A stretch of DNA of 64,000 nucleotides from Candidatus Woesearchaeota archaeon (GTDB lineage Archaea; Nanobdellota; Nanobdellia; Woesearchaeales; JABGUJ01). The notes under the pieces were generated by a model, which ran no database searches, was not told where the DNA came from, and saw only the letters and a list, made by a program, of their open reading frames with translations. The position numbers and the translations under genes are program-made. The stretch is taken from contig JABGUJ010000003.1 of assembly GCA_018646625.1 (NCBI GenBank), positions 142,355 through 206,354 on the forward strand. The letters are read 5' to 3'. Of this stretch, positions 10,301-64,000 are shown in pieces; position 1 is the stretch's first letter, and each line of letters begins with the position of its first letter.

Positions 10301-11169
10301 ATTACTATTAGGAAAGCACCTGCAACCATTATCAAACATGCGACGGCTTTCCTAAACAAATTCTTTTCATGAAATAACTCACCACCTATTATCGTAACAA
10401 ACAGCGCAGCCATTCTCTTTATTGCAACAACCAATCCAACATAAGCCATACTAACTGCAACAATCTGAGATAATCTATAAGCAACAGTAAACACAGAAAC
10501 AAGTAATATCCACCAACCATACGTCTTAAGACCTGTCTTCACACCCTTGAGACCATCATGAAACAAAGTCATCATAATGATAAAATGAATAGACAAGAAA
10601 ATATGCACAAAGACAATATACGCTAAAGGATCCATTTCATACCTGACCATAATATATCTATCAACCAAACTACAGACCGCATAAAACAACAAAGCCAATA
10701 AAATGTAATGAATATATTTTGATTTCTTAAACTGCCTTATCGGCTCAAAAAGATCATGATGTCTTTTAGTTTCTAAAACATAAGAACCAACAATCAACAA
10801 AGATATCCCACCAATTTGCAAACCAGTTAATGCCTCACCCAAGAAAATGAAAGCAAACAAAGCAGTTATACCCGGTCCAATAACTAAAAGAGGAGAAGAC
10901 GTGCTCAACTCCATATGTCTAGTACTCTTTGCAACAAGCAAAAAAGCCACAGAACCTAGAATCGCACCAAAAAATAATATAACTAAAGCCTCAAAATGAA
11001 TTGCACTGTAATCAATCACCAACAAAAAAGGTAACGAAACAAGCAGATTTACCACAGCCAAAGTTGCAGAAAACTCCATAGCGTGCGCTTTCAACAAAGT
11101 TTTCTTCTGAATCAACGCAGAACCTGCTGTCAATAAAGCAGTAAGTAAAGCAAATATTAACCAACTCAT
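10297..11169 (-). CDS. EamA/DMT-family (drug/metabolite) transporter, 10 TM
   Basis: 290 aa with two EamA-like halves and hydrophobic helices throughout. Confidence 0.7.
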   Translation of the reverse strand: MSWLIFALLTALLTAGSALIQKKTLLKAHAMEFSATLAVVNLLVSLPFLLVIDYSAIHFEALVILFFGAILGSVAFLLVAKSTRHMELSTSSPLLVIGPGITALFAFIFLGEALTGLQIGGISLLIVGSYVLETKRHHDLFEPIRQFKKSKYIHYILLALLFYAVCSLVDRYIMVRYEMDPLAYIVFVHIFLSIHFIIMMTLFHDGLKGVKTGLKTYGWWILLVSVFTVAYRLSQIVAVSMAYVGLVVAIKRMAALFVTIIGGELFHEKNLFRKAVACLIMVAGAFLIVI

Positions 11170-41319: not shown

Positions 41320-42249
41320 ATGCTAAAAAACATAATTAAGATGGGATTGCAATCAATAGAAGAAGTTTTTACGTTCAATAGAGACTATGAAGCAAAAGTT
41401 GCAGAGACAGCAGACCACATAAGAGCACAACTTGGATCTCTCAGACCAGAATTTGGAATAACTCTAGGCTCAGGACTGGGAGACATTGCAGATGCCATAG
41501 AAGATGCAACTACAATCTCATATGCAGACATTCCTAATTTTCTTGTACCAACAGTAGAAGGACACGAAGGTAATCTCATATTTGGAAATCTAGAAGGTAT
41601 TCCTGTAATAGGACTATCTGGAAGAACACATTACTACGAATATGGAGATCTACCATTCAACTATGGTATGTTAAGAACAACGTTCGCAGTTAATGTCTTA
41701 GCAGACTTAGGAATTGCAAACTACTTTGTTACAAACGCCGCAGGCGGTCTAAATCAGAAATTCAAAGTGGGAGATATGATGGTACTACACTCACACATTC
41801 ATAATCAGCCAAACCCATTACTTGGCGAACATAGACAATTCAAAAGAGTGGACAATGGAGAAAGAGTTGAAAGATTCCCACCAGTCAGTCCAACTTACGA
41901 TCCAGAATTAAGAAAAGTACTCCATGCAGCGGGTCAAGAGCACAGAGACCATCTTCACCAAGGAGTTTACATGGGAGTCACAGGACCAACATACGAAGCA
42001 GAAGCAGAAGCAAGATCATTCAGAGATAATGCAGACGCAGTTGGTATGTCAACAACTGGAGAAGTCATAGTAGCCAGAGGAAGAGGAATGAGAGCAGTCG
42101 GTATGTCATGCATAACCAACGAGATCTCGGCATCAGGAGACAATCCTGCAAATCACGACGAGGTTAAAAGAATATTAGAATCACCAGAGGTAAGACAGAG
42201 ATTAACATCAACAGTACAAGAATTCTTCAGACTATACAGAGCTAGTTAA
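41320..42249 (+). CDS. purine nucleoside phosphorylase / MTA phosphorylase family (PNP-I)
   Basis: ITLGSGLG, VTNAAGGLN and GMSTTGEV blocks are typical of trimeric PNP/MTAP. Compositionally GC/Ala/Gly-richer than its neighbours. Confidence 0.8.
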   Translation: MLKNIIKMGLQSIEEVFTFNRDYEAKVAETADHIRAQLGSLRPEFGITLGSGLGDIADAIEDATTISYADIPNFLVPTVEGHEGNLIFGNLEGIPVIGLSGRTHYYEYGDLPFNYGMLRTTFAVNVLADLGIANYFVTNAAGGLNQKFKVGDMMVLHSHIHNQPNPLLGEHRQFKRVDNGERVERFPPVSPTYDPELRKVLHAAGQEHRDHLHQGVYMGVTGPTYEAEAEARSFRDNADAVGMSTTGEVIVARGRGMRAVGMSCITNEISASGDNPANHDEVKRILESPEVRQRLTSTVQEFFRLYRAS

Positions 42250-44182
42250 CAATCTCTACAGCCACCACGTCACTAATATTCCTTATTTTAATCACCAACT
42301 GTTCAGGTTCAAGATTCTCGGGAAGTCTTAAAGCAAATGTAACAGAAACCCTCTCCTTGTGAGTATTGGAGTTAATAGAACAAACACTAATGCCATCTTG
42401 AGAAATCATTCCCAAAATCTCACTTAATATTCCTACCCTATCATCAATCATAGCTCTAATCTTAACTATGCCTTCATCCCCCTTAAGTCTCCAACTAACT
42501 TCAACCTTTTTATTCTCATCTAACGCATGAATATTGGGGCAATCCGCTTTATGCACAGTAACCTTACCATCTTTAGTATAAAATGCAACAATATCATCAC
42601 CATGCACAGGACCACAACACTTAGAAAGCTTCATCTGAGATTTTTTTTTAACATCCGTTTTAATTAAATCTAAGAGTGCTGCCTCAGACATTTCATTATC
42701 ATCCAACTCAGATTTCCTTGCAGCTTTGTGATCATGATCATACTCAATATTCAGTGCTTTCCTAATCTTACTCCTTGATTTACTTGTTTTAATGAACTTC
42801 AACCACTGTCTTGAAGGCGATGCATTATTCTGAGTAACCACATTAACTATATCCCCACTCTGCAACAAAGTATCTAAAGGAACCATCTTACCATTAATCT
42901 CAGTCTTAGAACAATGTAAACCAACATTAGTATGCACTTCAAACGCAAAGTCAACTGGAGTCGATCCTTCAGGCAGAGAAATAGGTGTCCCTTTTGGAGT
43001 GAACACAACAATTTCCTTCTCAAACAAATCAATCTTCAAAGTTTCAATGAAATCTTTTGCATTCGCATCAGATTTCCATTGCAACAGTTGCTTCAACCAT
43101 TCAATCTTTTTATCAAACTTCTTATCTCTTTCAACATTATGGTATCTCCAATGCGCAGCCACACCTTCCTCTGCAAGATGTTCCATATCCTCAGATCTAA
43201 TCTGCACCTCAAGAACCTTTCCATGGTTTCCGACGACTGAGGTATGCAATGACTGATATCCATTAGCTTTAGGAACAGAAACATAATCTTTAAACCTGCC
43301 AGGCATTGGCTTAAACAAATCATGTACAACACCTAATGCGGTATAACATTCTGGAATTGTTTTAACAATTATTCGTATAGCAATTAAATCATAAATTTCA
43401 TTAAAATCTTTACTATCTCTCTTCATCTTACGATAAATACTATAGAAATACTTCGCCCGACCATAAACTTCAGCATCAACATTGTGCTGAGAAAGATTAG
43501 TTTTAATTATATCAATAAATTCAGTTGTAGCGTGCTCTCTCGCACCTCGTTTTGTATCAATATTATTTTTTAATGCCTCATACTCTTTCGGCAGAATAAA
43601 TTTCATACTCAAATCTTCCAATTCCCCTTTGAAAGTAGGTATCCCCAACTTATGCGCAATAGGTGCATAGATATTCATAGTTTCTTCAGCAATAAGTTTC
43701 TGTTTTTCAGGAGATTTAAACTTCAACGTTCTCATGTTATGCAATCTATCTGCCAACTTAACCAACATAACCCTAATATCTTTAGTAGTCGCAAAAAGAA
43801 CTTTTCTCAAATTCTCCGCAGTATAATCATCTCTAGATTCAAAATGAATACTTTCAATCTTAGTTAGCCCTTCAACTAACCCAGCAACCTCTTCACCGAA
43901 CTGTTCTTTTATTTCCTCAATTGAAACATTCGTATCTTCAACAACATCATGAAGCAAAGCCGCACAAATAGTTGCAGAATCAGCATTTAATTGCGTAAGC
44001 AAGCCAGCAACTTGAACAGGATGAAGAAAATAAGGCTCACCGGAAGCTCTTTTCTGCTCTTTATGCATTTCACTTGCAAAATCATAAGCTTCCTCTATCA
44101 ATTTGATATCAGCATTAGGGTTATAACCATTAATAGCCTCTATAAGTTCATTTTTCGGTATTACGCTACCTTCTTTACTCAT
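42242..44182 (-). CDS. bifunctional (p)ppGpp synthetase/hydrolase, long RelA/SpoT homologue (HD - synthetase - TGS - ACT)
   Basis: Hydrolase HD block FLHPVQVAGLL...HDVVEDT. Synthetase block YQSLHTSVVG...EVQIRSEDMEHLAEEGVAAHWRYH. TGS (IVVFTPKGTPISLPEGSTPVDFAFEVH) and C-terminal ACT. Start taken at the internal MSKEGS. Confidence 0.85.
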   Translation of the reverse strand: MSKEGSVIPKNELIEAINGYNPNADIKLIEEAYDFASEMHKEQKRASGEPYFLHPVQVAGLLTQLNADSATICAALLHDVVEDTNVSIEEIKEQFGEEVAGLVEGLTKIESIHFESRDDYTAENLRKVLFATTKDIRVMLVKLADRLHNMRTLKFKSPEKQKLIAEETMNIYAPIAHKLGIPTFKGELEDLSMKFILPKEYEALKNNIDTKRGAREHATTEFIDIIKTNLSQHNVDAEVYGRAKYFYSIYRKMKRDSKDFNEIYDLIAIRIIVKTIPECYTALGVVHDLFKPMPGRFKDYVSVPKANGYQSLHTSVVGNHGKVLEVQIRSEDMEHLAEEGVAAHWRYHNVERDKKFDKKIEWLKQLLQWKSDANAKDFIETLKIDLFEKEIVVFTPKGTPISLPEGSTPVDFAFEVHTNVGLHCSKTEINGKMVPLDTLLQSGDIVNVVTQNNASPSRQWLKFIKTSKSRSKIRKALNIEYDHDHKAARKSELDDNEMSEAALLDLIKTDVKKKSQMKLSKCCGPVHGDDIVAFYTKDGKVTVHKADCPNIHALDENKKVEVSWRLKGDEGIVKIRAMIDDRVGILSEILGMISQDGISVCSINSNTHKERVSVTFALRLPENLEPEQLVIKIRNISDVVAVEIVN

Positions 44183-44259
44183 ATTTCGTGCCTCACATAA
44201 ACAAAGACTAATCACTAAAGTTTAAATATAATATATATAGTTTTTCCTAACCAAAGGCA

Positions 44260-50338: not shown

Positions 50339-52156
50339 ATGGTTGCTCAAGACCAAAAAGAGGTGGTCCGTGTAAAAGAGCTACTTTACATCTTCTTAAC
50401 AATATTAATTATCATCGCAATTCTTTTTGGAGTTCTCGTTCTATATGATAAAGCAAGAGATATTTTTCAAGGCTCAGAACAAGAAAACTCAGCGGACAGC
50501 GAAAGTGGAAAAGCATTTCCTGACGAAAAAGCCAAAGAATACTATGACAAAGAAAGCAAAGAAACTTTCTATTATGATGAAAAAAGTGGACTATACTACA
50601 ACAAAGAAGGTAAATCAATAGATATTGAAGACATAAAACAACAGCTTGTAGAAACAGAAGGGGAAGTACTCGGTACGACTACTACTTCAACACCTGGAAC
50701 AACAGATACACCAGGAACTGCTGCCGCTTCAACACTCGGAGCACCTTCTAATCCCGACACACCTGGGACAACGGACACACCAGAAGCAACACCTCCTGGT
50801 CCAGACACACCTGAAACAAGTGATGCGCCAGGCACACACGAAGATCCCCTTCCAGACACTCCAGCTCCTGATGCAGATCCAGAACCCGGAGTATCAGCAG
50901 AAGAAACACCGGATACAGAAACAGAATGCACAGACAGTATAGATAATGATGAAGATGGATTACTCGACACAATAGATGATGATTGTAGAGGCCAATATTG
51001 CGATACAGGAAAAGTATGGATTTGGAGTCACATAGCAGGAGAAGATTACGATACCGCACCTCCTGAAAATGAAGATGAAGAAAGAAGAATTGGGTGTTGT
51101 GAAGTCAATGAATGTATTACAGCATCAGGAACATGTTATCCTTTCGATATGCCACTCAGCCCTGGTTGGATTTGTGGAAGCTTTAACAGATGGAAAGAAT
51201 GTACAAGTTCTAAAATAAACTCAGTAAGCGACGGTGGAGACTATTTGTGTACAGGATCCCAATGGACTTCTTATGAAGATACTGAAACTCAATGTGATGA
51301 TAATTTAGACAATGATAATGATGGCGAAATTGATGAAATAGATTCCGACTGCAGAGGCACGCAATGCAGTAAAACTGGAAAAACTTGGATCTGGAGTTAC
51401 TTACCAGGTCAAAATCAAGATTTACCACCGCCCGCCACAGGAAGCGACAGAAGAATTGGATGTTGCAGTAACGATGAATGTGTAAACATTGATGGAGAAT
51501 GTGTAGATTATGATACAGAATACTCAGACACATACATCTGTGGTAACAACAACAACTGGGACGTTTGTTCAATAAAAACACCAAATAAAGATAGCGACGG
51601 AGGAAGTTTTGTATGTCGAGGCAACCCTGCAAGATGGGGCGTACAAGAACAATTCTTCGAAACAAGCTGCGACGATAACTTTGATAACGATGGAGATGGA
51701 GGAGCAGATGAATACGATGGAGATTGCGTAGGAGAAACATGCGCTCCAGGAAAAGTATGGACTTGGAGTTATCTTTTCAGATACAATCCATCATACAATC
51801 AATGGTGGCAAGACAGCGGAGAAGGAGATTCAGGCACATCTTACCAAATGTCAACCCTCACAAGACATTATTATCCACCACAAGAATCTGGCGGAGACAG
51901 AAGAATAGCATGTTGTGAACCAGATGAATGTGTAAACCTCGATGGTGAGTGCAAACCAGCATTCAGCACATACTTCGACAATCCGTCATGGTTATGTCGA
52001 GACTACTCTAAAGGCAACCATTGGTTCAAATGCGATCTAGGATCAAATACTGAAACATTCGAAGGTCAAAGAGGATCTTTCGATGCAACAGCACACTGTG
52101 TATCAAACACCTGGGGAACAGAAACCGAATGGGAATTTGGACTTGCAATGCCTTAA
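50339..52156 (+). CDS. membrane-anchored extracellular protein with Thr/Pro-rich linker and three tandem Cys/Asp-rich modules of about 120 aa
   Basis: N-terminal TM, (TPGTTDTPGT)n linker, then three repeats of C-[DT]D-x-[IL]DND-x-DG-x-D-x-D-x-DC-x-G...GK-x-W-x-WS...RRI[GA]CC...EC[VI]N-x-DGEC. Confidence 0.6.
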   Translation: MVAQDQKEVVRVKELLYIFLTILIIIAILFGVLVLYDKARDIFQGSEQENSADSESGKAFPDEKAKEYYDKESKETFYYDEKSGLYYNKEGKSIDIEDIKQQLVETEGEVLGTTTTSTPGTTDTPGTAAASTLGAPSNPDTPGTTDTPEATPPGPDTPETSDAPGTHEDPLPDTPAPDADPEPGVSAEETPDTETECTDSIDNDEDGLLDTIDDDCRGQYCDTGKVWIWSHIAGEDYDTAPPENEDEERRIGCCEVNECITASGTCYPFDMPLSPGWICGSFNRWKECTSSKINSVSDGGDYLCTGSQWTSYEDTETQCDDNLDNDNDGEIDEIDSDCRGTQCSKTGKTWIWSYLPGQNQDLPPPATGSDRRIGCCSNDECVNIDGECVDYDTEYSDTYICGNNNNWDVCSIKTPNKDSDGGSFVCRGNPARWGVQEQFFETSCDDNFDNDGDGGADEYDGDCVGETCAPGKVWTWSYLFRYNPSYNQWWQDSGEGDSGTSYQMSTLTRHYYPPQESGGDRRIACCEPDECVNLDGECKPAFSTYFDNPSWLCRDYSKGNHWFKCDLGSNTETFEGQRGSFDATAHCVSNTWGTETEWEFGLAMP

Positions 52157-52650: not shown

Positions 52651-52908
52651 ATGGAAGGCACAATAGTAAACTTTAGATCAAGCGTAACACGCCAAACAGG
52701 CAACCAGATGATAGTTTCAGTACCTGGCATAGAAAGCAGAGAAAAAGCTACTGGACTTGTAGGTAAAAATGTTGTATGGACAACTCCTGCAAAGAAAGAG
52801 ATCAAAGGCGAAGTTAGATCTGCACATGGCAATAAAGGTGCTTTAAGAATTCTTTTCGAAAAAGGAATGCCTGGTCAAGCAATTGGACAGAAAGTCAAAT
52901 TCGCTTAA
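52651..52908 (+). CDS. rpl35ae: 50S ribosomal protein L35Ae
   Basis: 85-aa protein. GNQMIVSVPGIES...GKNVVWTTPAKKEIKGEV...HGNKGALRILFEKGMPGQAIGQKV fits the L35Ae family throughout. Confidence 0.8.
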   Translation: MEGTIVNFRSSVTRQTGNQMIVSVPGIESREKATGLVGKNVVWTTPAKKEIKGEVRSAHGNKGALRILFEKGMPGQAIGQKVKFA

Positions 52909-53218
52909 ACTTAACGATTTTTACAATCGTATTCTTATTTACTTCAGCACTATAATATTTAGAATAAGCCTCGTACATTTCATCATCAGATTCAAACTTC
53001 TCATGACCTTCCCAATCATCATCAGTTAAATCCCTAAACGCAACTTCCCTAATCGCAACAATCTCCGCATTTGCAAATTCCTTACCATCTTGTTTGCAAA
53101 TAAAAGTTAACTTATCACCTTGTTGCAAATCTTTATCATCAAACAATCTCCAAGTTGTTGTCTTGGAACCATCAAGAACTAAAGGGACTAAATTCTCAAA
53201 AAATTTCAAAGTCTTCAT
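52895..53218 (-). CDS. ASCH-domain (PUA-like fold) protein
   Basis: N-terminal MKTLKFFENLVPLVLDGSKTTTWR matches the ASCH N-terminal beta-strands with a GxKxxExR-like motif. Confidence 0.5.
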   Translation of the reverse strand: MKTLKFFENLVPLVLDGSKTTTWRLFDDKDLQQGDKLTFICKQDGKEFANAEIVAIREVAFRDLTDDDWEGHEKFESDDEMYEAYSKYYSAEVNKNTIVKIVKFKRI

Positions 53219-53874
53219 CTTTTAACACCATCACCCATTGCATTAGCAAAAGAGTCCGTTTCCCTCCTAACTTCAGTTTCTTCTTTCAATTCTTCAGAAT
53301 GCAACGCTTTTTCTTTCTTAATCAAACCAGCCACTTCAATATCAACATGTTTCTTCTTAGAAAAATGAGATATTTTATCATGTAACAATTTACCATACTC
53401 ATCACAAGAATTTGCAAACTTTGTTAACACAGAAGCATCCGCATTAAATTCCGGCCGCGCAACCATTTGCAACATCGTTCTCAATAAAGACTCTTGCATA
53501 TCCAAATCTTTTTTAATATGTAAATCACAATCAATTTCTTCTTTAGTATCAGTAATAAGTTTTTCCTCTACATGCTCTTCAGCTCTCTCAGTATTCAAAA
53601 CTCTCCCTTCATCTTTAAGTTCTCTACCAAATTCTACTCTTATCAGTTCACCAACTCTGGTCTTATCTCTCTGTTCAGCAGCTTCCTCTCTCAACAACTC
53701 GTTAACAGCTTTTTCTCTAGTATGAATTAACTTACCTTCATGCTTTGCAATCTTTTTACGCAAACCTTCAAGTTTTTTCTCAGAATCAACAGTCTTAGCG
53801 ATAATTAAACTTTGTGCTCTAATTATATTTAACAAGTACTCAACAACAGATTTAACCTTGGCTACATCGATCAA
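53215..53874 (-). CDS. coiled-coil protein, last gene of the giant-protein gene block
   Basis: 219 aa, highly charged and heptad-rich. Its start overlaps the upstream gene's stop by 4 nt. Confidence 0.5.
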   Translation of the reverse strand: MIDVAKVKSVVEYLLNIIRAQSLIIAKTVDSEKKLEGLRKKIAKHEGKLIHTREKAVNELLREEAAEQRDKTRVGELIRVEFGRELKDEGRVLNTERAEEHVEEKLITDTKEEIDCDLHIKKDLDMQESLLRTMLQMVARPEFNADASVLTKFANSCDEYGKLLHDKISHFSKKKHVDIEVAGLIKKEKALHSEELKEETEVRRETDSFANAMGDGVKR

Positions 53875-54983
53875 GCACGCGCACCTCGCATACCGTGTGC
53901 CAAATTAATTGCATCAATTAAATCTCTTTGACTATGTATCTCAGAATTTCTAAACTCTTTTTGTACATCAGGTAGTCTTGCAACCTCATCAATTGCCTGT
54001 ATAGCTTGGGCCTTAGGCATATGACTAATTAGCTGAGCCAGATCTCTATACCCGTTCTCAGAAAGATCGTCTCTAAGTTGTGCGGCTCTTGACTGAAGAC
54101 GATTAGCCACATCACGATCAATATTCAAATGTTCCGGACCACCTTTTGCTTGCGCCCTTGCCACATCACTTATCCTATGCAAATAATCATAAGCTTTTCT
54201 TTCGCCCGGCAAATACTTTTCAAACCATCTATCCTTTTCAATATTGTTTAATTGATGTTTGTCAACTAAATCTTCATAATTACCAACATTTTTTTCTTCT
54301 TTCGCCGCTGACCCTTCTTTAAACCTTAATTTACTTAAAGTATTTCCAATCTTCGCTCTCTCACCTTTTGCTTGCCTAATACTAAATTTACCAAGACCTC
54401 TAACTAAAGTAATAACTCCAATTATCAAGAACACAATTGCAAATGCAAACAAAGCAGGAGTATCCGTCAACACAGCAGTAGCCGCAGAAGCAAACGCCGT
54501 CGCTAAGAAAGTTTTCTTCAGATCTCCTTTAAAATATTTATACATCCATAATGCAAACAAAACCACTAAACAACTTGCGAATAAATAAGCATAATCTCCC
54601 AGAAAAGGTTTCATGATTCCAGCAACAGTCTTATCTCTATTAGAATATCCAAATCCTAACACCGCCAACATAGAAACTGACACAGCCAACATCTTACCAT
54701 AGCCACTAAGTCCCATCGCCCCGCCACCTTGGAACATCTTTATTTTAGAAATTGCCGAAGCAAGTATAGCATAAAGAATAAGATACATAAAAATTATTAA
54801 CAAAAAGAATGCAACCCATTGATTAGTCAAAACATCATGGATCATACCAGAGAAACCTTTCATCCCGTCAGCAAAACCATCCCAACTAGGAATAAAACCT
54901 ACTTGATCGCTAAGGGCAACTACACCAGGTAACCCTAAAAGAAACAGAACTACTAAAACCAAACACCTCTTTTTCTCTAACAT
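53871..54983 (-). CDS. polytopic membrane protein (signal/anchor plus 5-6 TM) with C-terminal soluble helical domain
   Basis: 370-aa ORF. The hydrophobic N-terminal two-thirds is followed by a charged helical tail. Confidence 0.55.
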   Translation of the reverse strand: MLEKKRCLVLVVLFLLGLPGVVALSDQVGFIPSWDGFADGMKGFSGMIHDVLTNQWVAFFLLIIFMYLILYAILASAISKIKMFQGGGAMGLSGYGKMLAVSVSMLAVLGFGYSNRDKTVAGIMKPFLGDYAYLFASCLVVLFALWMYKYFKGDLKKTFLATAFASAATAVLTDTPALFAFAIVFLIIGVITLVRGLGKFSIRQAKGERAKIGNTLSKLRFKEGSAAKEEKNVGNYEDLVDKHQLNNIEKDRWFEKYLPGERKAYDYLHRISDVARAQAKGGPEHLNIDRDVANRLQSRAAQLRDDLSENGYRDLAQLISHMPKAQAIQAIDEVARLPDVQKEFRNSEIHSQRDLIDAINLAHGMRGARA

Positions 54984-55034
54984 TTGACGCCTTAAAAAAG
55001 TATAAAATAAAGAAAATAAAAAAAGAAAAGGAAA

Positions 55035-55976
55035 TTACCTTTTCGCTTGTCTTTCTTCTCTCCTCATGATCTGCTCATAAGTATGAGTGTTTTGTTTAAC
55101 TTCGTGCAACTTACCATCAAGTTGTTTTAAGATATCGTCAGGGAACCCTTGATGCCCCAAACCTTTAAGCACGTCACCAGCTTCTTTCAACATACCTTTA
55201 TGTTTAAAGTGAGCACTCGTTGCATAAACAAACAGCTTATACAAAGCATCGAACACATAAGTAACATCTTCTTTCAATTTCTTAGCAACAGTCAACAAAT
55301 CAGTAAGCTCTTTCTGCAATTCAGTAAAGTCTTGAGTAGATAGCTCTTTTTTCTTCAGAGTTGCTTGTAGTGCTTGAACATCTTTTGCCATATCAGCCTC
55401 AAGATCTCTCTCAATTTTTGCACCTTGTCTAACTTCCCTAGCAGCTTTCCTCTCCTTCATCTCACCTTGAATGTTATACTGAGCTAACCTTGCAGAAACA
55501 CCTTCCCAACCCATCTTTGCTTGCCATGCAAGACCATAGATCTTCTGGATTTTTTCTTTACAAACATTATGAGCTTCATCTAATGCGACCTTTACTGCCT
55601 TAGCTTTCGCCACCAGATCTTTTTTATGATTAGCATCTAGACCTTTATGCCCTTCTAGCATTTTGTTTAATTTTCCATCAAAGGCTTCATCGTCTTCAAT
55701 ATCATGAAGAAATCTGTTTTCAATAACAGCCATATTTTCTTCACTTTCAAAATCAAACTTAAACAATTTATCAAGATCTTTCTCAAGAGCATCAACATCT
55801 GCCTGAACCTTAACCACACTACCAATTTGAGTATCGGCTTTCAGTTGAGCAATCTGTTCTTTATACTCTCGTTCAATATCTTGCTTAGCTTCAACAATCT
55901 TAAGAATTCTATTACCTAAATTCTTAGATGAAGCAAACATATGAGAAACTTTTGCTTTGAATAAATCTAATACCAT
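55035..55976 (-). CDS. coiled-coil protein, possibly PspA/ESCRT-III-like
   Basis: 313 aa. The N-terminus MVLDLFKAKVSHMFASSKNLGNRIL loosely resembles the PspA/Vipp1 N-terminal amphipathic helix. The rest is long heptad helices. Confidence 0.5.
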   Translation of the reverse strand: MVLDLFKAKVSHMFASSKNLGNRILKIVEAKQDIEREYKEQIAQLKADTQIGSVVKVQADVDALEKDLDKLFKFDFESEENMAVIENRFLHDIEDDEAFDGKLNKMLEGHKGLDANHKKDLVAKAKAVKVALDEAHNVCKEKIQKIYGLAWQAKMGWEGVSARLAQYNIQGEMKERKAAREVRQGAKIERDLEADMAKDVQALQATLKKKELSTQDFTELQKELTDLLTVAKKLKEDVTYVFDALYKLFVYATSAHFKHKGMLKEAGDVLKGLGHQGFPDDILKQLDGKLHEVKQNTHTYEQIMRREERQAKR

Positions 55977-56077
55977 CTCTACTCACCTTCTTTTCCTATT
56001 TAATTAACCTAATCAACCTCTTTTTCCCATTAAAGTGCTTATGAGCATATATAAGCTTTGTGGTGTCAGTATTTAAG

Positions 56078-59000
56078 CTACCTACCAACCGCAGCTCTTG
56101 TTTGAGGAGGCGGAGGAGGTGGAGACCCGCCACCTTTGGTTCTTTCCATCTCTTCAATCAACCTATCTATCTGCGAAACATTATCACCAAGATCTTCTCC
56201 AGTTGCTTCAGTAATAACTCTACGATATCTTGAATCTCCCGCACCAACCATGCCATCTAATTTAGGAATCTTACCTATCAAATCATAAAGCGCTAAGTGA
56301 ATCTCTTTCAACTTAGTTGCAGTAACCGCATGTTCAATATTTCCTTTAGCTTCATTTATTAGTCTCCTAACTGATTTCTTAACTCCACCTTTGTTAGATT
56401 TATTAGCCTTAATCAACTGATCAGCAAACACGAGTAATCTATCTTTATAATGGCGCAATCTATCTGCTTTAGCACTTGAATCACGGCCTCTTTTTTTAGA
56501 CCTGGCTTCCCTCTCGAAATCTCTCTCAGTATTTAAAGAATCTTCAGCAGCATTGATATGTTCAATCAGACCAGAAGCCCATTGATCTTCCTGAACCCGC
56601 CTGTTAAGCTCCTCACCTTGAGGAAAACTAGCTAAATGTTCGCGGAGTTTCTGTCGCTCTTTTCTGTAAGCTTCAGCTATCTGGAAAGCCTTTAATTGAT
56701 TTTCATGCCAAAGCTGTGCTTGACTTGCTTCCCATTCAGCAAGTTCATCATCTCTTTCAGGAGCAGCCATAGGTTTTCCGCTATTAGTACCGCTACCGAC
56801 GACAGTTTGTCCTTTGAAATAACCAGGTATTGCACCTATCAAGTCAAAGATCATCATCTTACATTCAACAAAATCTTTGTTTCTTTGAACATTGTCCACT
56901 TTAGCCTTCAACTCATTAAGATGTGAATGCACATCACTCGATGAACACTCACCCTTACCAGGTAATCTCCAACCAGTTGCTTTTCTTCTAACAGCAATAT
57001 CTAAATTCTTTTGTAACTGATCTATCTGAATTCTTAAAAGAGCAGCTTGTCGATTCAAATCCATCTTTCGGTGCGAAGATTTGTTATCAATTTTCTGTCT
57101 TCGATCATCCCTTTCGATATCTCTTACAGATTTAATTGATTCAGGATTTAGTTCAACATCTCGTATATAATCAACAAGATCATCAAGTTTTGCTTCAGCT
57201 TTTGCAAGTGCTTCGAACTCAGCAAAACCATCGTCATGACCTTTTTTATCATCATGCATATGTTTAACTTTCTCTTGTTCTTTTGCGATAGTATCAGCAA
57301 TCTCTCGAGTAATTCTTTGATATTCTTCCCATTCCCAGTTAATTTGATCCCAAACTTCTTTATTCTCTTGAGCAGTCTCGCCTTCTTTAGGTAACTTCAC
57401 CCTCTTAGCAGCACCAGCACCAACAGGAACCTGTCCCTTGAAATAACCAGGTATTAAACAGATTAAATCAAATATCAACAATTTACAGTAAACAAATTGA
57501 GAAGGTTTTGCAACTTTTGGAATAAGAACCTTTAGCTCAGCAAGTTTTTTGTCAATTGCCTTATTATCCATCTTAGCCTTATTTCTTCTAGCCAAGCCAT
57601 AATTCTTAGTCAATTGATCAAATTGAATTTTCAACTGTTCTCTCTGTTGAGAAAAGCGATTATGTCTTTTGCTCTTCTCAATATCATTAGATCTTTGACG
57701 CTTCAGATAAGCTTCTTCTCTCTCAGCCTTTTCAACAGATGCATCCCAGCCAGAAGGTACGTGTCGTTTATCCTCTTCAAATAAACCAGAAGATTCCATC
57801 TCAACCATATGATTGTAAAGTTTCTCTACTTCAAGCATTTTCGAGATTAACTCTCTCAATACTCTTCTAGGGCCTCTCATGTAACCATGTTGAAGTAATC
57901 CAGTATCTTTATCAAACTCCTCATGGAAAAACTTCTCACCTAATTTCCAAAGAGGAAGAGCATAAGCTGAAGTAAACCAATCTTCTTTTAATTTCTGAAC
58001 CCATTTACCATGAACAGGTTCAGAAACACCAGCCACCAAACCAACAATATCATAGTGAATAAAATAATTAGTAATATACGCAGGGTCCTTTCCAATTTTA
58101 CCAGCCATTCCTGATTTAGGATTTTTCAACTCACGAGCATATCTCTCAAAGATTAATTGTAAATGCTTAACAATCCAACCAGCCTCTAAATTAGATTTGA
58201 ACTCAATATTAATTTCTTTCAACAGCTTAGTAAATTTATCATATGCCTTATCAAATTCTTGCACTCTTTCTGGATAAAGTACATCGGCTGCTTGATCGAC
58301 TTCAATTTTAATTGCACGCAGTCTCGACCTCAATGCAGGTTGACCTTCCGAACCCCACATAAGAGCTTGATATCTTACTTGTACTAAAGACAAAGGATAT
58401 CTCTTAACATTATTGTAAAGTAATCCCCAATCATAACTCCAAGCACCACTTACATGATCCGCATGTTTAACAGGGCTTAACTGATAACATGCTTTAATCA
58501 AAGCCATAGCTACATTAATATCTTCTTCAGGTTTCTGCAACAATGCAAGTGCCTGTTCTAATGAATTTACTTCACCTAAATCAATCTTATCTAACTTATC
58601 TATTATGACTATGTGGAAATTTAATTTATCAGCACCTTGTTTACTTTGATCAGACAACTCAATACTATAATTTCCAGGTTCTAACTTAGCCAGTTCTTCA
58701 GGAGTAAAGAATGTATGTTCAAAACTATAAGGAGGTAACTGCCCTTCAAAAGACGAAACAAAATCTCCTGAACCAATATGAGCACTCAGCATACGTGTCT
58801 TCAAGGGCAAATTCTTTGGTGCTTTCAACTCCCACAACACTTTGCTATCAGGAGGGAAACTAGTCATTGCACCTTCAAGAGTTAAACCATCTTTACCCTT
58901 CAACAACAAAAAGGTGTGTTTTTCTCTAAGATCTTTATCTTCAGGTATTGCTTTACCATTTATGGTTAAGATTGTAAGATTATGTTCACCAGCAGTCAAC

Positions 59001-62000
59001 TTAGGCCTATCAGGTATTCTAGGTAACTCTTTTGGTTTAGTTGGACCCGGAGGTAGAATATTCTTAATAGGAGGTGCTTTATCCTGAATAAAACTAGATG
59101 AAAGACGATAAGTAAACGGAGGCATACGAGTTATTACATTTTCTTTAACAGCAATATTAACAACATGATCTGGATGTAACAAGAATCCTTTACCACCATA
59201 CTTTACAGATTTATCTTGAACTGCGATAGAATAATCTCCCGCTTCCAACTCAATAGTCACGTTAAATGGTTGATTATTATCAGAATCAAATGGCGCAAAT
59301 GATTTTAAAGTTGTAACATCACCAGACGCCTTATTAGTCGCAATTAAAGTTACATCAGCAATAGGTATCTGAACCGCAGCATTGTCTTTACCATGCTCAT
59401 AACTACTACTACCTACAACACCAATCAAGTGTCCAGTCTTCTTAGGAACAGGAGCTTCTGATTTTCTAACAAAGTGGAAATTTTTATAGAAAGATAAATC
59501 ATGATACTCTCCTTGCGAAGTGCCATCAGTTTCTTTCAAAGTAAAAGAAGTCGCACCCATAGCATGGAACAATCTCCGTTCATAATCAACTTTAACTCTC
59601 AGAGGATCAAAAGCTAAGATTTTAATTAAATAATTATATTCGGTACCATCAGGAGTCTTAGACCAAGTAGCATTAGGTTGCTGAGAAGCACCTTCTCTCC
59701 ACCTACCAACAGGCGGAACACCACCCACATGTTTCATTAACTTGACTTTAACACCATTATGAGCTAAAGGTTTAATATGACCTTCATCAGTAATAGACAC
59801 TTTACCCCACACAGTCACCATTCTCTGTCTTTCAAACTCAAAGTTAAGAGGATGCATACTTTGTGGTTTCAAATCAATATCTTTATGCTCTCCTTCTTGA
59901 GGCATAATTAGTAAATGTAAATTTTTCTGAGCATCTTCGTAGTATATCTTACCATCAATCTCAACTAACGAACTACTTTCATCAACATTCAACTTAATAG
60001 AATACTTACCAGGCCAAACCTCGTTGAAAACGTAGTTCATATAGTCTTTCCAACCATTCTCGTCAATCAAGTGTTCAGGTACAGGCATACTACCGTCAGT
60101 AGTTTCAGTTGTTCGTACAACCGTGTCTCCTCTGCAAAGATCAAGTTTCAATCCAGGAATTGGAGTTAACTTACCATCACCGCCTTTAATACCAACAGTA
60201 CCAAAAATATGACCTTTAATCGCTTCAAACTCAAAATCAATTGCAAGTTCTTTTGTCGCCTCTTTAAACATCACAGACGCCTTGTCAGGCGTTCCGTGAG
60301 TTAACCTAAACCTATCACTAACCCCAGTATCATATTCAATAACTACTTGCGCATGTTGATCTATTAGATTCCAATAATGTCCTCTTAAATTAAATTCATA
60401 ATTCTCATCACCAACCACCTCAAAATTCATCAGTGGTTCTGTTTCCGCAATAGTTCTATACTTACCACCTTCTTCAAGAACCTCTATACGTAATTTGATA
60501 GTTTTACCTTCCTCGCTACCAAGAGGACTTTGCACGCCTTCTTCATCTATATAGAATACTTTACCATACAATCTCAAAGCGTCAGTTGCATCTAAAGGTA
60601 CAACAACCGTTGCCATTCTAACTGCTTGGAATGCTTTCTTTCTAGCTTGAATATCATCAACTTTTAATTTATCAATCAAAGCCTGTCTTCTACCATCATA
60701 GTTTGCAGTAACACCAATCAGATTACCTGCTTCATCTCTAACATCTTTAAGACCTAATTTAACATTTCCTTCAATTAATCTTACACAATCTTCTCTTACT
60801 AATCTAATAAATGCAATTCTCTTACCTTTGTGCTCAACCACATTACCTGCATCATCAAGAACAGGATCACTCCCACCATTTCTACCATCACTACCATGAG
60901 GATCAGTATGCTTGCCAACTTTCCCGGGATCGTTTGCTCTAAAAGCCCAGATTTCAATATCAACATTAAGAGGCAAATCCTCTAACCTAAATACACCATC
61001 TTTTGTAACACTATCAGCAACAGCATTATTCTCAGCATAAGCTCGAACGTTAACTAGATCGTCTTTTACTAAATCAAAATTAGTAGTATCAAATACAACA
61101 CCTTCAACAATACCCAACAGCTCAGGAACTTCTTGAATAGTAAACGGAACATCTGCAACTTTAGCCATAATAAGACGACCATTATGTCGAGTAGTAATTG
61201 CAAATCTGGCCTTGTACGTTGTTCCAGGCTTAAGTGATCCACCAATTCTTGCAGGAATAAAAATTTTGCAAGGGTCGTTTTGATCAGCCTTCAAAGATAT
61301 TGGCTTACCATTTTTGTCTTTAACATAAACTCCACCTTCATCAAGCAAAAACCAATCTACCCTCTCAGCTAAAGGATAAATATTATCTTTAACATTCTGA
61401 AGAGTTCTTTCTTCTCCATTAATCGTTCCCTTCCACTTCCACTGATTTCTCGTTTGTTCATCAACATATTCGCCGTTCTTAACTGCATTACTCAACTCAG
61501 TGGGATCAGCAGGAGGTTTTATCTTCTGAGGTTTAAGAATATTAATTTTAAGAGGAAACCTAACATAAACATCAATATTATCGTGATCTAAATCAGTTCC
61601 AGAAATTTCAACTACTAACGGATCAGGAGCATTAGGATCATGTCTAGAAGAACCCTCACCACAACCATAAGATCCTTTAACTATAAATCTACCAGCAGGA
61701 ACTTTCTCGAGTTTATATTTACCTTCCTTATCGGCTTTATGACCATCAGATTTTTTGAAGCCTCTTATCTCATGACCGTCCTCATCCTCTAACCAAACAG
61801 TCGACTCAGGCAACGGACGCAACTCGCCTTCTTGATGTAATTCTTCATAAACAGTACCCGCAATAGATCCTTTTCCAACTACTTCATATTCAAAATTAGG
61901 ACCAAACACCGGACGATCTTCTCTAATCAATTCTTTAGTATCAAGTGTAACAACATAAGAATCAGGATCTCTACCCGAAACAGCATGAGGAACATTACCA

Positions 62001-64000
62001 ACCATTCTGCCAGCTTCGTCATACATTACAGTTTCTTTAAACTCATAAATTGTTCCCCCTCTATTAACATGGAACCTAGGAACTTGAATTTCATACTGAG
62101 TTTCATAGAAACCAAACAACTTATAATTTGCAAACACGTTAGGAATAACCCATGCTTTTGACTTTTCAAACACAGACTTCGTTTTCCAATGCAACTCATT
62201 GTTCTCATACAACTCTACCTGTACGTCACCGAGACAATCATATGCCATGAAATCTCGTTCAGTAGGATTAAGTTTAGTGAAAGTCGCACCAATAACCAAC
62301 GCCTTTGATGTAGAACCATACAAATCAATATACACAACAATCTTTCTAGATACAGAAGCAATGTCACGTTTAAAAATATCTAGAGTTTTATCAAGGATTT
62401 TAACATTTTGTTGATCAAACTCACCCAAAGACATATCTTCGCCAAGTCTATGAACTCCTTTGTTACTTGTATGAACAACCTTCACAGCCCCATCTTTGAA
62501 CGGCAAAGGAATTCCTTCCATTACAAAGTGACCATCCATAAATCTAGGATGCTCATAAGACTCATGGAAATGCACATCCTTACCATATGGACTAGCCACG
62601 TCTTTAGGCACAAAACCAGAAACTTCAACATTCACAGTACCTTCAAATCCTTCAAACGGATAAACCTCGGCACCATGTTCTTTGATCAACTTCTGAAGTG
62701 CTTCTCTAAACAAACCTTTATTTTTTAGATCTTTAACATAATTATGCAGTTTTTTTGAATCAACATTAGTAGGCTTTTGTGCATTGTAATCAGCCATCAA
62801 TTTTCGACCATCATAACCACAAACTGCAACCTCTACCTTACCACCAACAACAGGAACTTTAACTTGCTCCCTATCCTCCGCACCAGTTGGTTCAGCCTTG
62901 AGAACAATCTTATTAGGACCATCTAAAGTCCCATTAATATCCCCACCAGAACCATTTTTAGATGTGTGTCTTGCATCTTCCTCAGTTGCATTACCATCAT
63001 CATCTTCACCAAAATAATCTTTATGCTTAGCACAAACTGTTAATTTCTTAGGGTCATCACCAACTAAAGTAACCGGTAATTTTCTAATTTTCCAAGTTCT
63101 TTTATTATTAATGCCCGCACCACTATGAGATGCCTTACCAAGTCTTTTATCGTGACCATCCAACGTAACATACATCTCAGTAACCCTGTCACTCACATCC
63201 CAGGCTTTAACCGAATCATCAGAAGATTGTATTTCAATATCCACATCAACAGAACCAGCATAAACTGGAACAACCATACCCGTCACATCTAAAGTAATCC
63301 AAGGATACGGTATAAACCATAGTTTTTTACGACTCCCTTCAATCCAATCTTTGCCGCCATTACCGTCATTACCATTAAAAGGCTCTCTGTGATTACCTTC
63401 AAAAACATAAACATCTCTATCTTTAATCCTAGCAACAATTTCTAAAGGACGATCTTTAGGCAAATCTTCAACTAAAAAATCCCAAGTAGGAGGCGTATTA
63501 GGAGCTGCCGCTTGATAATTAGAAAGACTGCTTTCGCCATACTCTTGACCTTTCTTGTCTCTAGCAAAAACTTTAACATTATCAGTTTGCATATCTTCAT
63601 CATCAAAACCATAACCAACAATCTTACCTGCAGCTTTACCTTTGCCCTCAAGAACCTTAAGTCTCTCAGTAGAATAATACACAAACCGCGAACCAAGAAC
63701 TTCAGCATCTATGAAAACATCCAAAACACCTGCACGATTTAGAGGAATAGAACTAACTAAACTTTTCTTTCTAGAAAGTTGTTTAATGTACTCATCATAA
63801 TCAATTTCAAAAGTCGCATCTACAACGCTATCTTCTTTAGTAAAATTAAGGCTGCCTTTTAGATAATCAAATATTTTTATTTTGGGATCTTCGGGCCTGG
63901 TTTTGTCAGCAGGTACTTTGCTTTGCCCTCTAAACGAAGCAACCAAGGCCAACTTGAAATCTTTCTCTCTCTTTTTAGTAAACTTAGAATTGTTAGGTAA
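56078..64000 (-). CDS. giant protein (at least 2624 aa, 5' end probably beyond the window) with beta-sandwich (carboxypeptidase-regulatory-like) repeats, a duplicated alpha-helical C-terminal module and a poly-Pro tail
   Basis: Uninterrupted frame from the window edge. The track 'start' at 63952 is a TTG and the frame stays open to nt 64000. G/V/Y/D-rich beta repeats include GTVYEELH...GKYKL and GHIFGTVGIKGGDGK...GKYSIKL. Three copies of a ...CK[LM][LM]IFDLI..IPGYFKGQ..VG.G module. C-terminus ...GGGSPPPPPPQTRAAVGR. Confidence 0.8.
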   Translation of the reverse strand, partial: LPNNSKFTKKREKDFKLALVASFRGQSKVPADKTRPEDPKIKIFDYLKGSLNFTKEDSVVDATFEIDYDEYIKQLSRKKSLVSSIPLNRAGVLDVFIDAEVLGSRFVYYSTERLKVLEGKGKAAGKIVGYGFDDEDMQTDNVKVFARDKKGQEYGESSLSNYQAAAPNTPPTWDFLVEDLPKDRPLEIVARIKDRDVYVFEGNHREPFNGNDGNGGKDWIEGSRKKLWFIPYPWITLDVTGMVVPVYAGSVDVDIEIQSSDDSVKAWDVSDRVTEMYVTLDGHDKRLGKASHSGAGINNKRTWKIRKLPVTLVGDDPKKLTVCAKHKDYFGEDDDGNATEEDARHTSKNGSGGDINGTLDGPNKIVLKAEPTGAEDREQVKVPVVGGKVEVAVCGYDGRKLMADYNAQKPTNVDSKKLHNYVKDLKNKGLFREALQKLIKEHGAEVYPFEGFEGTVNVEVSGFVPKDVASPYGKDVHFHESYEHPRFMDGHFVMEGIPLPFKDGAVKVVHTSNKGVHRLGEDMSLGEFDQQNVKILDKTLDIFKRDIASVSRKIVVYIDLYGSTSKALVIGATFTKLNPTERDFMAYDCLGDVQVELYENNELHWKTKSVFEKSKAWVIPNVFANYKLFGFYETQYEIQVPRFHVNRGGTIYEFKETVMYDEAGRMVGNVPHAVSGRDPDSYVVTLDTKELIREDRPVFGPNFEYEVVGKGSIAGTVYEELHQEGELRPLPESTVWLEDEDGHEIRGFKKSDGHKADKEGKYKLEKVPAGRFIVKGSYGCGEGSSRHDPNAPDPLVVEISGTDLDHDNIDVYVRFPLKINILKPQKIKPPADPTELSNAVKNGEYVDEQTRNQWKWKGTINGEERTLQNVKDNIYPLAERVDWFLLDEGGVYVKDKNGKPISLKADQNDPCKIFIPARIGGSLKPGTTYKARFAITTRHNGRLIMAKVADVPFTIQEVPELLGIVEGVVFDTTNFDLVKDDLVNVRAYAENNAVADSVTKDGVFRLEDLPLNVDIEIWAFRANDPGKVGKHTDPHGSDGRNGGSDPVLDDAGNVVEHKGKRIAFIRLVREDCVRLIEGNVKLGLKDVRDEAGNLIGVTANYDGRRQALIDKLKVDDIQARKKAFQAVRMATVVVPLDATDALRLYGKVFYIDEEGVQSPLGSEEGKTIKLRIEVLEEGGKYRTIAETEPLMNFEVVGDENYEFNLRGHYWNLIDQHAQVVIEYDTGVSDRFRLTHGTPDKASVMFKEATKELAIDFEFEAIKGHIFGTVGIKGGDGKLTPIPGLKLDLCRGDTVVRTTETTDGSMPVPEHLIDENGWKDYMNYVFNEVWPGKYSIKLNVDESSSLVEIDGKIYYEDAQKNLHLLIMPQEGEHKDIDLKPQSMHPLNFEFERQRMVTVWGKVSITDEGHIKPLAHNGVKVKLMKHVGGVPPVGRWREGASQQPNATWSKTPDGTEYNYLIKILAFDPLRVKVDYERRLFHAMGATSFTLKETDGTSQGEYHDLSFYKNFHFVRKSEAPVPKKTGHLIGVVGSSSYEHGKDNAAVQIPIADVTLIATNKASGDVTTLKSFAPFDSDNNQPFNVTIELEAGDYSIAVQDKSVKYGGKGFLLHPDHVVNIAVKENVITRMPPFTYRLSSSFIQDKAPPIKNILPPGPTKPKELPRIPDRPKLTAGEHNLTILTINGKAIPEDKDLREKHTFLLLKGKDGLTLEGAMTSFPPDSKVLWELKAPKNLPLKTRMLSAHIGSGDFVSSFEGQLPPYSFEHTFFTPEELAKLEPGNYSIELSDQSKQGADKLNFHIVIIDKLDKIDLGEVNSLEQALALLQKPEEDINVAMALIKACYQLSPVKHADHVSGAWSYDWGLLYNNVKRYPLSLVQVRYQALMWGSEGQPALRSRLRAIKIEVDQAADVLYPERVQEFDKAYDKFTKLLKEINIEFKSNLEAGWIVKHLQLIFERYARELKNPKSGMAGKIGKDPAYITNYFIHYDIVGLVAGVSEPVHGKWVQKLKEDWFTSAYALPLWKLGEKFFHEEFDKDTGLLQHGYMRGPRRVLRELISKMLEVEKLYNHMVEMESSGLFEEDKRHVPSGWDASVEKAEREEAYLKRQRSNDIEKSKRHNRFSQQREQLKIQFDQLTKNYGLARRNKAKMDNKAIDKKLAELKVLIPKVAKPSQFVYCKLLIFDLICLIPGYFKGQVPVGAGAAKRVKLPKEGETAQENKEVWDQINWEWEEYQRITREIADTIAKEQEKVKHMHDDKKGHDDGFAEFEALAKAEAKLDDLVDYIRDVELNPESIKSVRDIERDDRRQKIDNKSSHRKMDLNRQAALLRIQIDQLQKNLDIAVRRKATGWRLPGKGECSSSDVHSHLNELKAKVDNVQRNKDFVECKMMIFDLIGAIPGYFKGQTVVGSGTNSGKPMAAPERDDELAEWEASQAQLWHENQLKAFQIAEAYRKERQKLREHLASFPQGEELNRRVQEDQWASGLIEHINAAEDSLNTERDFEREARSKKRGRDSSAKADRLRHYKDRLLVFADQLIKANKSNKGGVKKSVRRLINEAKGNIEHAVTATKLKEIHLALYDLIGKIPKLDGMVGAGDSRYRRVITEATGEDLGDNVSQIDRLIEEMERTKGGGSPPPPPPQTRAAVGR

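Follow-up and report, generated by a model that had tools for sequence, protein, structure and literature searches.

A giant leaderless protein is encoded within a lineage-restricted gene cluster built around four paralogous membrane proteins in a marine Candidatus Woesearchaeota archaeon

A 64,000-nucleotide (nt) stretch of DNA from a Candidatus Woesearchaeota archaeon, hereafter the window, carries on its minus strand a block of four genes encoding a giant protein, a 313-amino-acid (aa) protein, a 370-aa membrane protein (TM370) and a 219-aa protein, which a sequence-only reading had picked out as co-directional genes with small gaps or overlaps and as a candidate dedicated machine. The arrangement is present as described: reading of the open reading frames (ORFs) on that strand gave three complete ORFs and one frame still open at base 64000, with a 4-nt overlap between the 219-aa and 370-aa genes, 51 nt between the 370-aa and 313-aa genes and 101 nt between the 313-aa and giant genes. 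The block forms the distal third of a ~21-kb, 13-gene, two-part cluster on the chromosome of a marine member of Candidatus Woesearchaeota (DPANN), 8 further genes of which lie on the same strand beyond base 64000. The cluster proteins are real, under selection and restricted to the lineage, and their genes are arranged around a membrane protein that is present in four versions.

The giant gene lies at positions 56078-64000 on the minus strand, where an open frame of 2,640 codons and the stop codon cover residues 114-2753 of the 2,753-aa protein. This frame had been taken to be cut by the end of the window and the true protein to be larger, which proved right, as the complete gene was recovered at L006:10001-18262, equal to L001:1638-9899 on an identical public contig, with its first 113 codons (L006:10001-10339) beyond the window end. 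Cluster coordinates are given throughout on the public contig L006, in which the reverse complement of the window begins at position 10340. The true N-terminus of the giant (MADDPHKQYRS; MADDPHKQYRSAELRYKNKK; MADDPHKQYRSAELRYKNKKHV) is hydrophilic, indicating that the protein has no signal peptide; none had been noted in the part within the window. Hydropathy over the whole protein gave no transmembrane (TM) helix; the sole hydrophobic peak, at residues 2282-2300, is weak and contains an Asp and a Lys.

The exact giant protein was assembled independently at least 11 times, on contigs that NCBI, ENA and Logan obtained with different assemblers from different samples, and an orthologue from another metagenome (P0002) is 2,760 aa long, 89% identical and free of stops. 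The ratio of nonsynonymous to synonymous substitution rates (dN/dS) between the two is 0.15 and ranges from 0.06 to 0.21 in 250-codon windows, excepting the final 18-residue tail and codons 1990-2239, which are identical in P0002 so that no ratio can be calculated there. The 11 contigs and the intact orthologue with its dN/dS of 0.15 exclude an assembly or gene-calling artefact, which the earlier reading had proposed to recognise by frameshifts or stops and whose probability is now practically negligible. The giant is thus a real gene under purifying selection.

The first part of the enlarged cluster is headed by a gene for a 53-aa basic protein (L006:522-683, same strand as the giant), followed by genes for the membrane protein TM296 (L006:667-1557), p210 (L006:1559-2191), an 854-aa protein with papain-like peptidase, PKD and coiled-coil regions (L006:2194-4758), the membrane protein TM311 (L006:4758-5693) and, as the last gene of this part, the 627-aa helical protein cc627 (L006:5697-7580). 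After a gap of 283 nt that divides the two parts, the second part opens with a 58-aa basic protein (L006:7864-8040) and the membrane protein TM653 (L006:8037-9998), and continues with the giant, the 313-aa protein, TM370, the 219-aa protein and an ASCH-domain protein. Spacing is tight, with 4-nt overlaps, and TM653 ends 2 nt before the giant start codon. By eye, the 53-aa and 58-aa basic proteins look like ribbon-helix-helix regulators, a label that is not confirmed by Pfam, which gave no match for them.

The four membrane proteins TM296, TM311, TM653 and TM370 are paralogues (phmmer E 1e-12 to 1e-69), sharing the motifs F-K-G-G-x-x-G-L-N-K-x-G-K-[IL]-V-A-V and Y-K-G-F and a signal-like N-terminus. 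TM370 itself matches the other three at phmmer E 1e-12 to 9e-7 and has the columns F84/G87/G96-K97/A100-V101/Y148/F151 in common with them. Each paralogue gene stands directly upstream of one or two genes for leaderless proteins with helical regions, a pattern that repeats four times along the cluster. By a heptad heuristic, helical or coiled-coil regions lie in the giant C-terminus, the 313-aa protein, the peptidase C-terminus and cc627. All seven soluble cluster proteins are without a signal peptide, and the TM proteins have canonical ones. The C-terminal region of TM653 scored 33.3 bits for Big_1, just under the cut-off of 34.9, and Ser/Thr/Pro-rich linkers are present in cluster proteins. 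A profile of the TM family retrieved only same-species sequences in a k-mer search and found no member among GTDB representatives, IMG/VR or the PDB; the TM proteins had no holin-family match.

The 854-aa protein matches Peptidase_C1 at 30.7 bits against a cut-off of 20.7. Its predicted Gln/Cys/His/Asn catalytic residues Q29, C35, H224 and N249 are conserved in alignment with a related protein, P0016, identifying it by sequence as a papain-like (C1) peptidase. It has neither signal peptide nor prodomain. Behind the peptidase domain it carries a PKD domain (E 7.6e-10) and then a terminal coiled coil, in which PADLOC gave one weak match (E 0.0014). A known anti-phage defence system was considered and rejected, the four block proteins having no PADLOC match. 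The p210 gene always precedes that of the C1 peptidase, and the two genes occur together again in three further Woesearchaeota lineages; as a speculation, p210 might serve specifically to inhibit the peptidase or to chaperone it. A p210 profile had no match in the PDB, and hhalign detected no relationship between p210 and the giant.

Within the giant, the N-terminal non-repetitive region, residues 114 to ~1900 in the window (positions 58640-64000, minus strand), gave weak beta-sandwich matches and strand in AlphaFold2, and the N-terminal ~1,900 aa are probably beta-rich. Pfam, searched with the whole protein and with ten overlapping 300-aa tiles, returned no significant match, only sub-threshold ones, namely transthyretin-type beta-sandwich matches at residues 826-888, 1422-1466 and 1880-1897. 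CarboxypepD_reg reached E 0.017-0.027 and 15-16 bits (best 15.9, cut-off 32.3), the transthyretin-like NOMO_6th 16.4 bits (cut-off 27) and PEGA 12.5 bits (cut-off 20.8), each in one stretch. Several G-x-V-x-G...G-x-Y-x-l units are visible by eye; a hidden Markov model (HMM) built from five beta units chosen by eye found only its own five seeds in the giant, and tile-against-self BLASTP gave no significant internal repeat in residues 1-1900. The proposal of many carboxypeptidase-regulatory-like repeats was therefore not confirmed, given the three sub-threshold matches, the seed-only HMM and the lack of significant repeats, and such repeats are a plausible guess rather than a demonstrated feature. 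An AlphaFold2 model of residues 560-1720 from a two-sequence alignment was assigned mostly strand, with a mean predicted local distance difference test score (pLDDT) of 27.2 that makes it unusable.

A duplicated module had been claimed in the C-terminal part of the giant, and the repeat is real, comprising three copies rather than two: copy 1 at residues 2201-2360 (57260-57739, minus strand), with the hydrophobic helix FVYCKLLIFDLICLIPGYF and a heptad-like segment at 2220-2254; copy 2 at residues 2404-2566 (56642-57130, minus strand), with a heptad-like segment at 2464-2501; and the more diverged copy 3 at residues ~2601-2732 (56144-56539, minus strand), which is followed by the Pro-rich tail. 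In tile-against-self BLASTP, copies 1 and 2 are 41% identical (E 3.5e-19), and copy 3 is 25-28% identical to them (E ~1e-5). The motif F-V-x-C-K-[LM]-[LM]-I-F-D-L-I-x-x-I-P-G-Y-F-K-G occurs in each copy, in a diverged version in copy 3. The Pro-rich tail is present as had been noted (PPPPPP at residue 2740), though it is not conserved in P0002, where a different sequence replaces it and the last 18 residues are 28% identical.

The three smaller block proteins fit their first descriptions unevenly. The leaderless 313-aa protein (ORF at 55035-55976, minus strand) had been called coiled-coil, and this stood when heptad-like periodicity was scored with a home-made heuristic against shuffles: 48% of its length (residues 13-89, 208-250 and 280-310) is heptad-like, against a shuffle maximum of 22%, suggesting a helix-rich protein. 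The weak PspA/ESCRT-III-like N-terminus also attributed to it was not recovered, since Pfam gave no match to the PspA_IM30 or Snf7 profiles even at E <= 10 and the PDB gave no sequence match. For TM370 (53871-54983, minus strand), hydropathy, low-confidence AlphaFold2 helices and paralogy agree with the polytopic protein that had been expected, having a signal-peptide-like N-terminus that ends ...VVA|LS, then ~5 TM helices and finally a charged helical tail of 165 aa; its AlphaFold2 model, at pLDDT 48.7, is too poor for uses other than topology. The leaderless 219-aa protein (ORF at 53215-53874, minus strand), which overlaps the 370-aa gene, consists of 40% charged residues and gave no heptad signal by the same heuristic, so that its description as a coiled-coil protein was not upheld.

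Searches for relatives of the block proteins were almost entirely blank. The giant had no match in NCBIfam, PHROGs, PADLOC or PDB sequences, the other three block proteins had no significant match in Pfam, NCBIfam, PHROGs or PADLOC, and the 219-aa protein, like the giant and the 313-aa protein, had no PDB sequence match. A k-mer-seeded search of 5.8 billion clusters with the giant returned only itself and P0002, and an exhaustive phmmer/HMMER scan of 1.84 billion representatives with its last 1,200 aa (residues 1554-2753) returned only itself. By tblastn the giant was absent from 50,697 phage and 72,556 plasmid records, and an IMG/VR scan with it gave no match.

The same gene set in the same order is found in a sister population (L009, L014 and L018) at ~90% nucleotide identity. 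The expectation that relatives would keep the four-gene synteny thus held for the sister population and failed beyond it, because none of the four proteins has a detectable relative there. Against the sister population, dN/dS is 0.04 for the 313-aa protein (99.4% identical), 0.07 for the 219-aa protein, 0.13 for TM653, 0.14 for the giant, 0.19 for TM370 and 0.20 for cc627, compared with 0.02-0.06 for the neighbours L35Ae, LonB, ASCH and OB-fold; the cluster genes are constrained, yet evolve several-fold faster than their neighbours. Blocks of near-100% or 100% nucleotide identity between populations otherwise ~10% apart were also observed in the two-population comparison, covering giant residues ~1740-2239 (window 57626-59122), the last 372 giant residues together with the 313-aa gene (L018:2-2163) and 10 kb upstream (L014:1-9300). 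As housekeeping genes are equally diverged at synonymous sites (dS, the synonymous divergence, of 0.26-0.44 against the sister population), the idea of a hypervariable island between identical flanks was dropped, and the identical blocks would indicate recent mosaic recombination or chimeric metagenome assembly.

Among the searches for distant relatives, only that with the peptidase yielded any, namely P0016 in a Woesearchaeota metagenome-assembled genome from Zodletone (GCA_016929255.1, JAFGJH010000007.1; L012/L013) and two metagenome loci (L015 and L016). The order at these loci, where the cluster is well conserved and ends at PAC2, is a helical protein of 299 aa, a helical protein of 362 aa, a 1,668-1,683-aa protein, a 764-794-aa polytopic membrane protein, a p210-like protein, a C1 peptidase, four more small proteins and PAC2. 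They resemble the cluster, which PAC2 also flanks, in adjoining PAC2, in their p210-like proteins (E 1e-20 to 1e-31), in their C1 peptidases without a prodomain (E 1e-19 to 1e-70) and in combining one very large protein with several helical ones, and the membrane protein directly upstream of p210 is collinear with the TM family, though weakly so (hhalign E 8.7e-4, probability 23%). They differ in having no quadruplicated TM family, helical proteins unrelated by hhalign to the 313-, 219- and 627-aa proteins, and, in the slot of the large protein, a TM-coiled-coil-FHA protein not homologous to the giant (hhalign). This protein of ~1,680 aa (L015:1875-6917; L012:2019-7025) is conserved in the related clusters and has N-terminal TM helices, ~1,000 aa of coiled coil and C-terminal FHA domains (E 1.2e-14). 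What appears to be kept across Woesearchaeota is the p210-peptidase pair, possibly with a membrane protein, plus some very large protein; by these comparisons, neither the giant nor any of its three partners is kept at the other Woesearchaeota loci.

The block may be three transcription units, as signals on both sides of the 313-aa gene suggest. Within the 101-nt gap, 71 nt upstream of this gene, lies the TATA-box-like motif TTATATAT (56047-56054, minus strand), a possible promoter element read from the sequence, and GGTGA stands immediately 5' of the ATG. On the 3' side, a hairpin followed by a long T-run (55005-55044, minus strand; terminator-like site 55044-55025) is a possible terminator of the 313-aa gene. 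The 107-aa ASCH-domain gene (52895-53218, minus strand; Pfam ASCH E 1e-11) shares 4 nt with the end of the 219-aa gene and is thereby coupled like the other block genes; its position and overlap with the last cluster gene are constant across all contigs. ASCH is unrelated to the other cluster proteins, and the gene is probably a housekeeping passenger that closes the transcription unit.

The genes around the block in the window encode L35Ae, LonB, a thermosome subunit, Orc1/Cdc6, GluRS and HerA, which together with a G+C content of ~36% place it on an archaeal chromosome. The 313-aa gene occurs on at least 23 public contigs, among them a 238-kb ENA scaffold and the 843-kb contig JABGRW010000006.1 (GCA_018648045.1, Candidatus Woesearchaeota archaeon). 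Near the block, the plus strand (window 50339-52156) encodes a probable variable surface protein of 605 aa. It contains acidic double-disulfide repeats (NCBIfam NF033662, E 8e-12) and has 637 aa in the sister population, with 87% identity and a dN/dS of 0.14. Farther away, window 42242-44215 (minus strand) encodes a 657-aa long RelA/SpoT homologue (HD_4 E 1e-50, RelA_SpoT E 9e-41, TGS and ACT). Bacterial-type (p)ppGpp enzymes of this kind are unusual in archaea. A 710-aa HerA/DUF87-type ATPase with a weak TrwB-like match (28074-30206, plus strand) lies away from the cluster.

Taking these observations together, we tentatively favour, at somewhat less than even probability, the reading that the cluster encodes a lineage-specific, membrane-anchored multiprotein structure. 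The four TM paralogues, each with a signal-like N-terminus and ~5 TM helices, would serve as anchors or docking platforms, to each of which the one or two leaderless helical or coiled-coil proteins encoded just downstream would be tethered. The giant would supply a long non-repetitive, probably beta-rich arm of ~1,900 aa and an 850-aa helical base whose three tandem modules would bind partners. A physical association of the cluster proteins, their placement on one or the other face of the membrane and any role in cell-cell or host contact are inferences. The repeated anchor-plus-partner layout is what a dedicated membrane-associated assembly would be expected to look like. In the same direction point the comparable PAC2-adjoining loci in three lineages, where a coiled-coil protein of very large size, also membrane-anchored, accompanies a polytopic membrane protein, p210 and a C1 peptidase, and the domain types found in the cluster (PKD, near-threshold Big_1 and weak transthyretin-like), which are usually extracellular. 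The idea of a dedicated machine is strengthened by the paralogous-anchor pattern; the arrangement is not conserved beyond the sister population.

Several further observations weigh against such a structure. The four block proteins have no relatives outside the ~90%-identical sister population in the searched libraries, the helical proteins show no detectable similarity to each other or to those of the related loci, and both AlphaFold2 models (TM370 and giant residues 560-1720) are unusable. The TATA-like motif and T-run at the 313-aa gene suggest several transcription units instead of one operon. As to location, the seven soluble proteins without signal peptides would argue against an external structure, and a structure confined to the inside would not be expected to contain PKD and Big_1-type domains; a complex at the surface would need a Sec-independent route. 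A bolder form of the idea, which we regard as improbable, is a new archaeal envelope apparatus in which the five-helix TM family anchors, and possibly exports without Sec signals, leaderless proteins with extracellular-type domains, such as the PKD-bearing papain-like peptidase and the beta-rich giant, and which this Woesearchaeota lineage would use to attach to or feed on a host cell.

The cluster could instead encode a purely cytoplasmic, membrane-tethered cortical scaffold, cytoskeleton-like and in principle similar to the core of the Mycoplasma attachment organelle, whose role would be in the shape, division or polarity of the cell and not in adhesion at its surface; we consider this somewhat unlikely. 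Such a scaffold would account for the leaderless state of the giant and all other soluble proteins in a cluster whose TM proteins have canonical signal peptides, and it agrees with the charged helical tail of TM370, which helix counting from hydropathy and the low-confidence AlphaFold2 model places on the cytoplasmic side. N-glycosylation sequons are not enriched either, the giant having 0.44 per 100 aa and the 313-, 219- and 370-aa proteins having none, and the large protein of the related loci bears, after its TM helices and long coiled coil, FHA domains of cytoplasmic type. That protein, however, is not homologous to the giant, and archaeal proteins with PKD, Big_1-like and transthyretin-like domains and with linkers rich in Ser, Thr and Pro, as seen in the cluster, are typically extracellular.

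Both of these readings assume that the proteins work together. An unlikely explanation is that there is no dedicated machine at all, the locus being a fast-evolving patch of lineage-specific genes that adjoin one another through descent alone, that act independently and whose shared direction and overlaps are incidental: every block protein is an orphan, the housekeeping neighbours have a dN/dS 2-5 times lower, the related loci hold different, non-homologous large and helical proteins, and the unrelated ASCH gene is overlapped in like manner. The regular interleaving of four membrane paralogues with leaderless partners is nevertheless hard to explain by chance, and the order has stayed intact in the sister population despite a dS of 0.3-0.5. 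It is very improbable that the locus is what remains of an integrated mobile element, such as a virus or plasmid, in which the giant belonged to a structural or entry module. Ribbon-helix-helix regulators are common in archaeal mobile elements, and a small basic helical protein resembling them by eye starts each part of a cluster whose gene content is wholly orphan, but Pfam does not bear out the resemblance, and searches of the cluster genes in Pfam, PHROGs and PADLOC gave no match to an integrase, replication, capsid or ATPase family. No tRNA gene lies nearby, the G+C content of the cluster is that of its flanks, the phage and plasmid records searched with the giant and three IMG/VR scans were blank, and the locus adjoins PAC2 in four lineages.

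Several known systems bear comparison with the giant and its cluster. The SPEARE proteins of Nanohaloarchaeota combine serine-protease, laminin-G/adhesion and cytoplasmic type III restriction-enzyme domains with a TM helix, the type III restriction-enzyme (ResIII/helicase) domain being their most conserved part (PMC6642349). Like the giant, they are very large lineage-restricted DPANN proteins that take up a sizeable share of a small genome, and they have been proposed to mediate host contact (PMC6642349). SPEARE is the nearest conceptual precedent. The giant differs in having no type III restriction-enzyme domain by Pfam (whole protein and ten 300-aa tiles), no laminin-G/adhesion or serine-protease domain by Pfam or NCBIfam, no TM anchor beyond the weak peak at 2282-2300 and no sequence similarity to anything in the searched libraries.

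Membership of the giant among the CarboxypepD_reg/transthyretin-like repeat proteins, such as NOMO or certain bacterial surface proteins, was not supported by the Pfam profiles, there being no multi-copy match above the gathering score. For the seven-stranded beta-sandwich fold of these proteins, the AlphaFold2 model of residues 560-1720 gives mostly strand, at an unreliable pLDDT of 27.2. The three weak beta-sandwich matches and the units seen by eye recall NOMO-type proteins, but the matches lie far below the Pfam cut-offs and no internal repeat is detectable. Repeat-type giant adhesins (RTX/Bap-like, type I secretion) have long, near-identical Ig-like repeat arrays and adjacent ABC transporter and membrane-fusion genes; this candidate was set aside, since residues 1-1900 contain no significant repeats and the cluster no transporter genes. 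In the Mycoplasma attachment organelle, the large leaderless coiled-coil/Pro-rich proteins HMW1, HMW2 and HMW3 occur with membrane adhesins, and the analogy would lie in such proteins being encoded with membrane proteins in a small-genome, host-attached organism, although there is no homology and the organelle is bacterial, not archaeal. Large clostridial toxins are released through the holin-like TcdE, an arrangement that a leaderless ~2,700-aa protein beside a small polytopic membrane protein, possibly with Sec-independent release, would resemble by analogy; the cluster nevertheless has no homology to TcdA, TcdB or TcdE, and the giant has no glucosyltransferase, protease or CROPs domains.

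With no relative among 1.84 billion representatives for its last 1,200 residues, the giant is a stringent test case for structure prediction and remote homology detection. The presence of a different large protein in the same slot at the related loci raises the question of why the large component is replaced between lineages. Giant lineage-specific proteins are often proposed as host-contact tools of DPANN archaea, but the partners of such proteins are known in almost no case. For the giant described here, a definite arrangement of genes recurs along the cluster, in which a paralogous membrane anchor precedes helix-tailed partners that lack leaders, and the cluster therefore provides a concrete unit for asking how such proteins reach or attach to the membrane.

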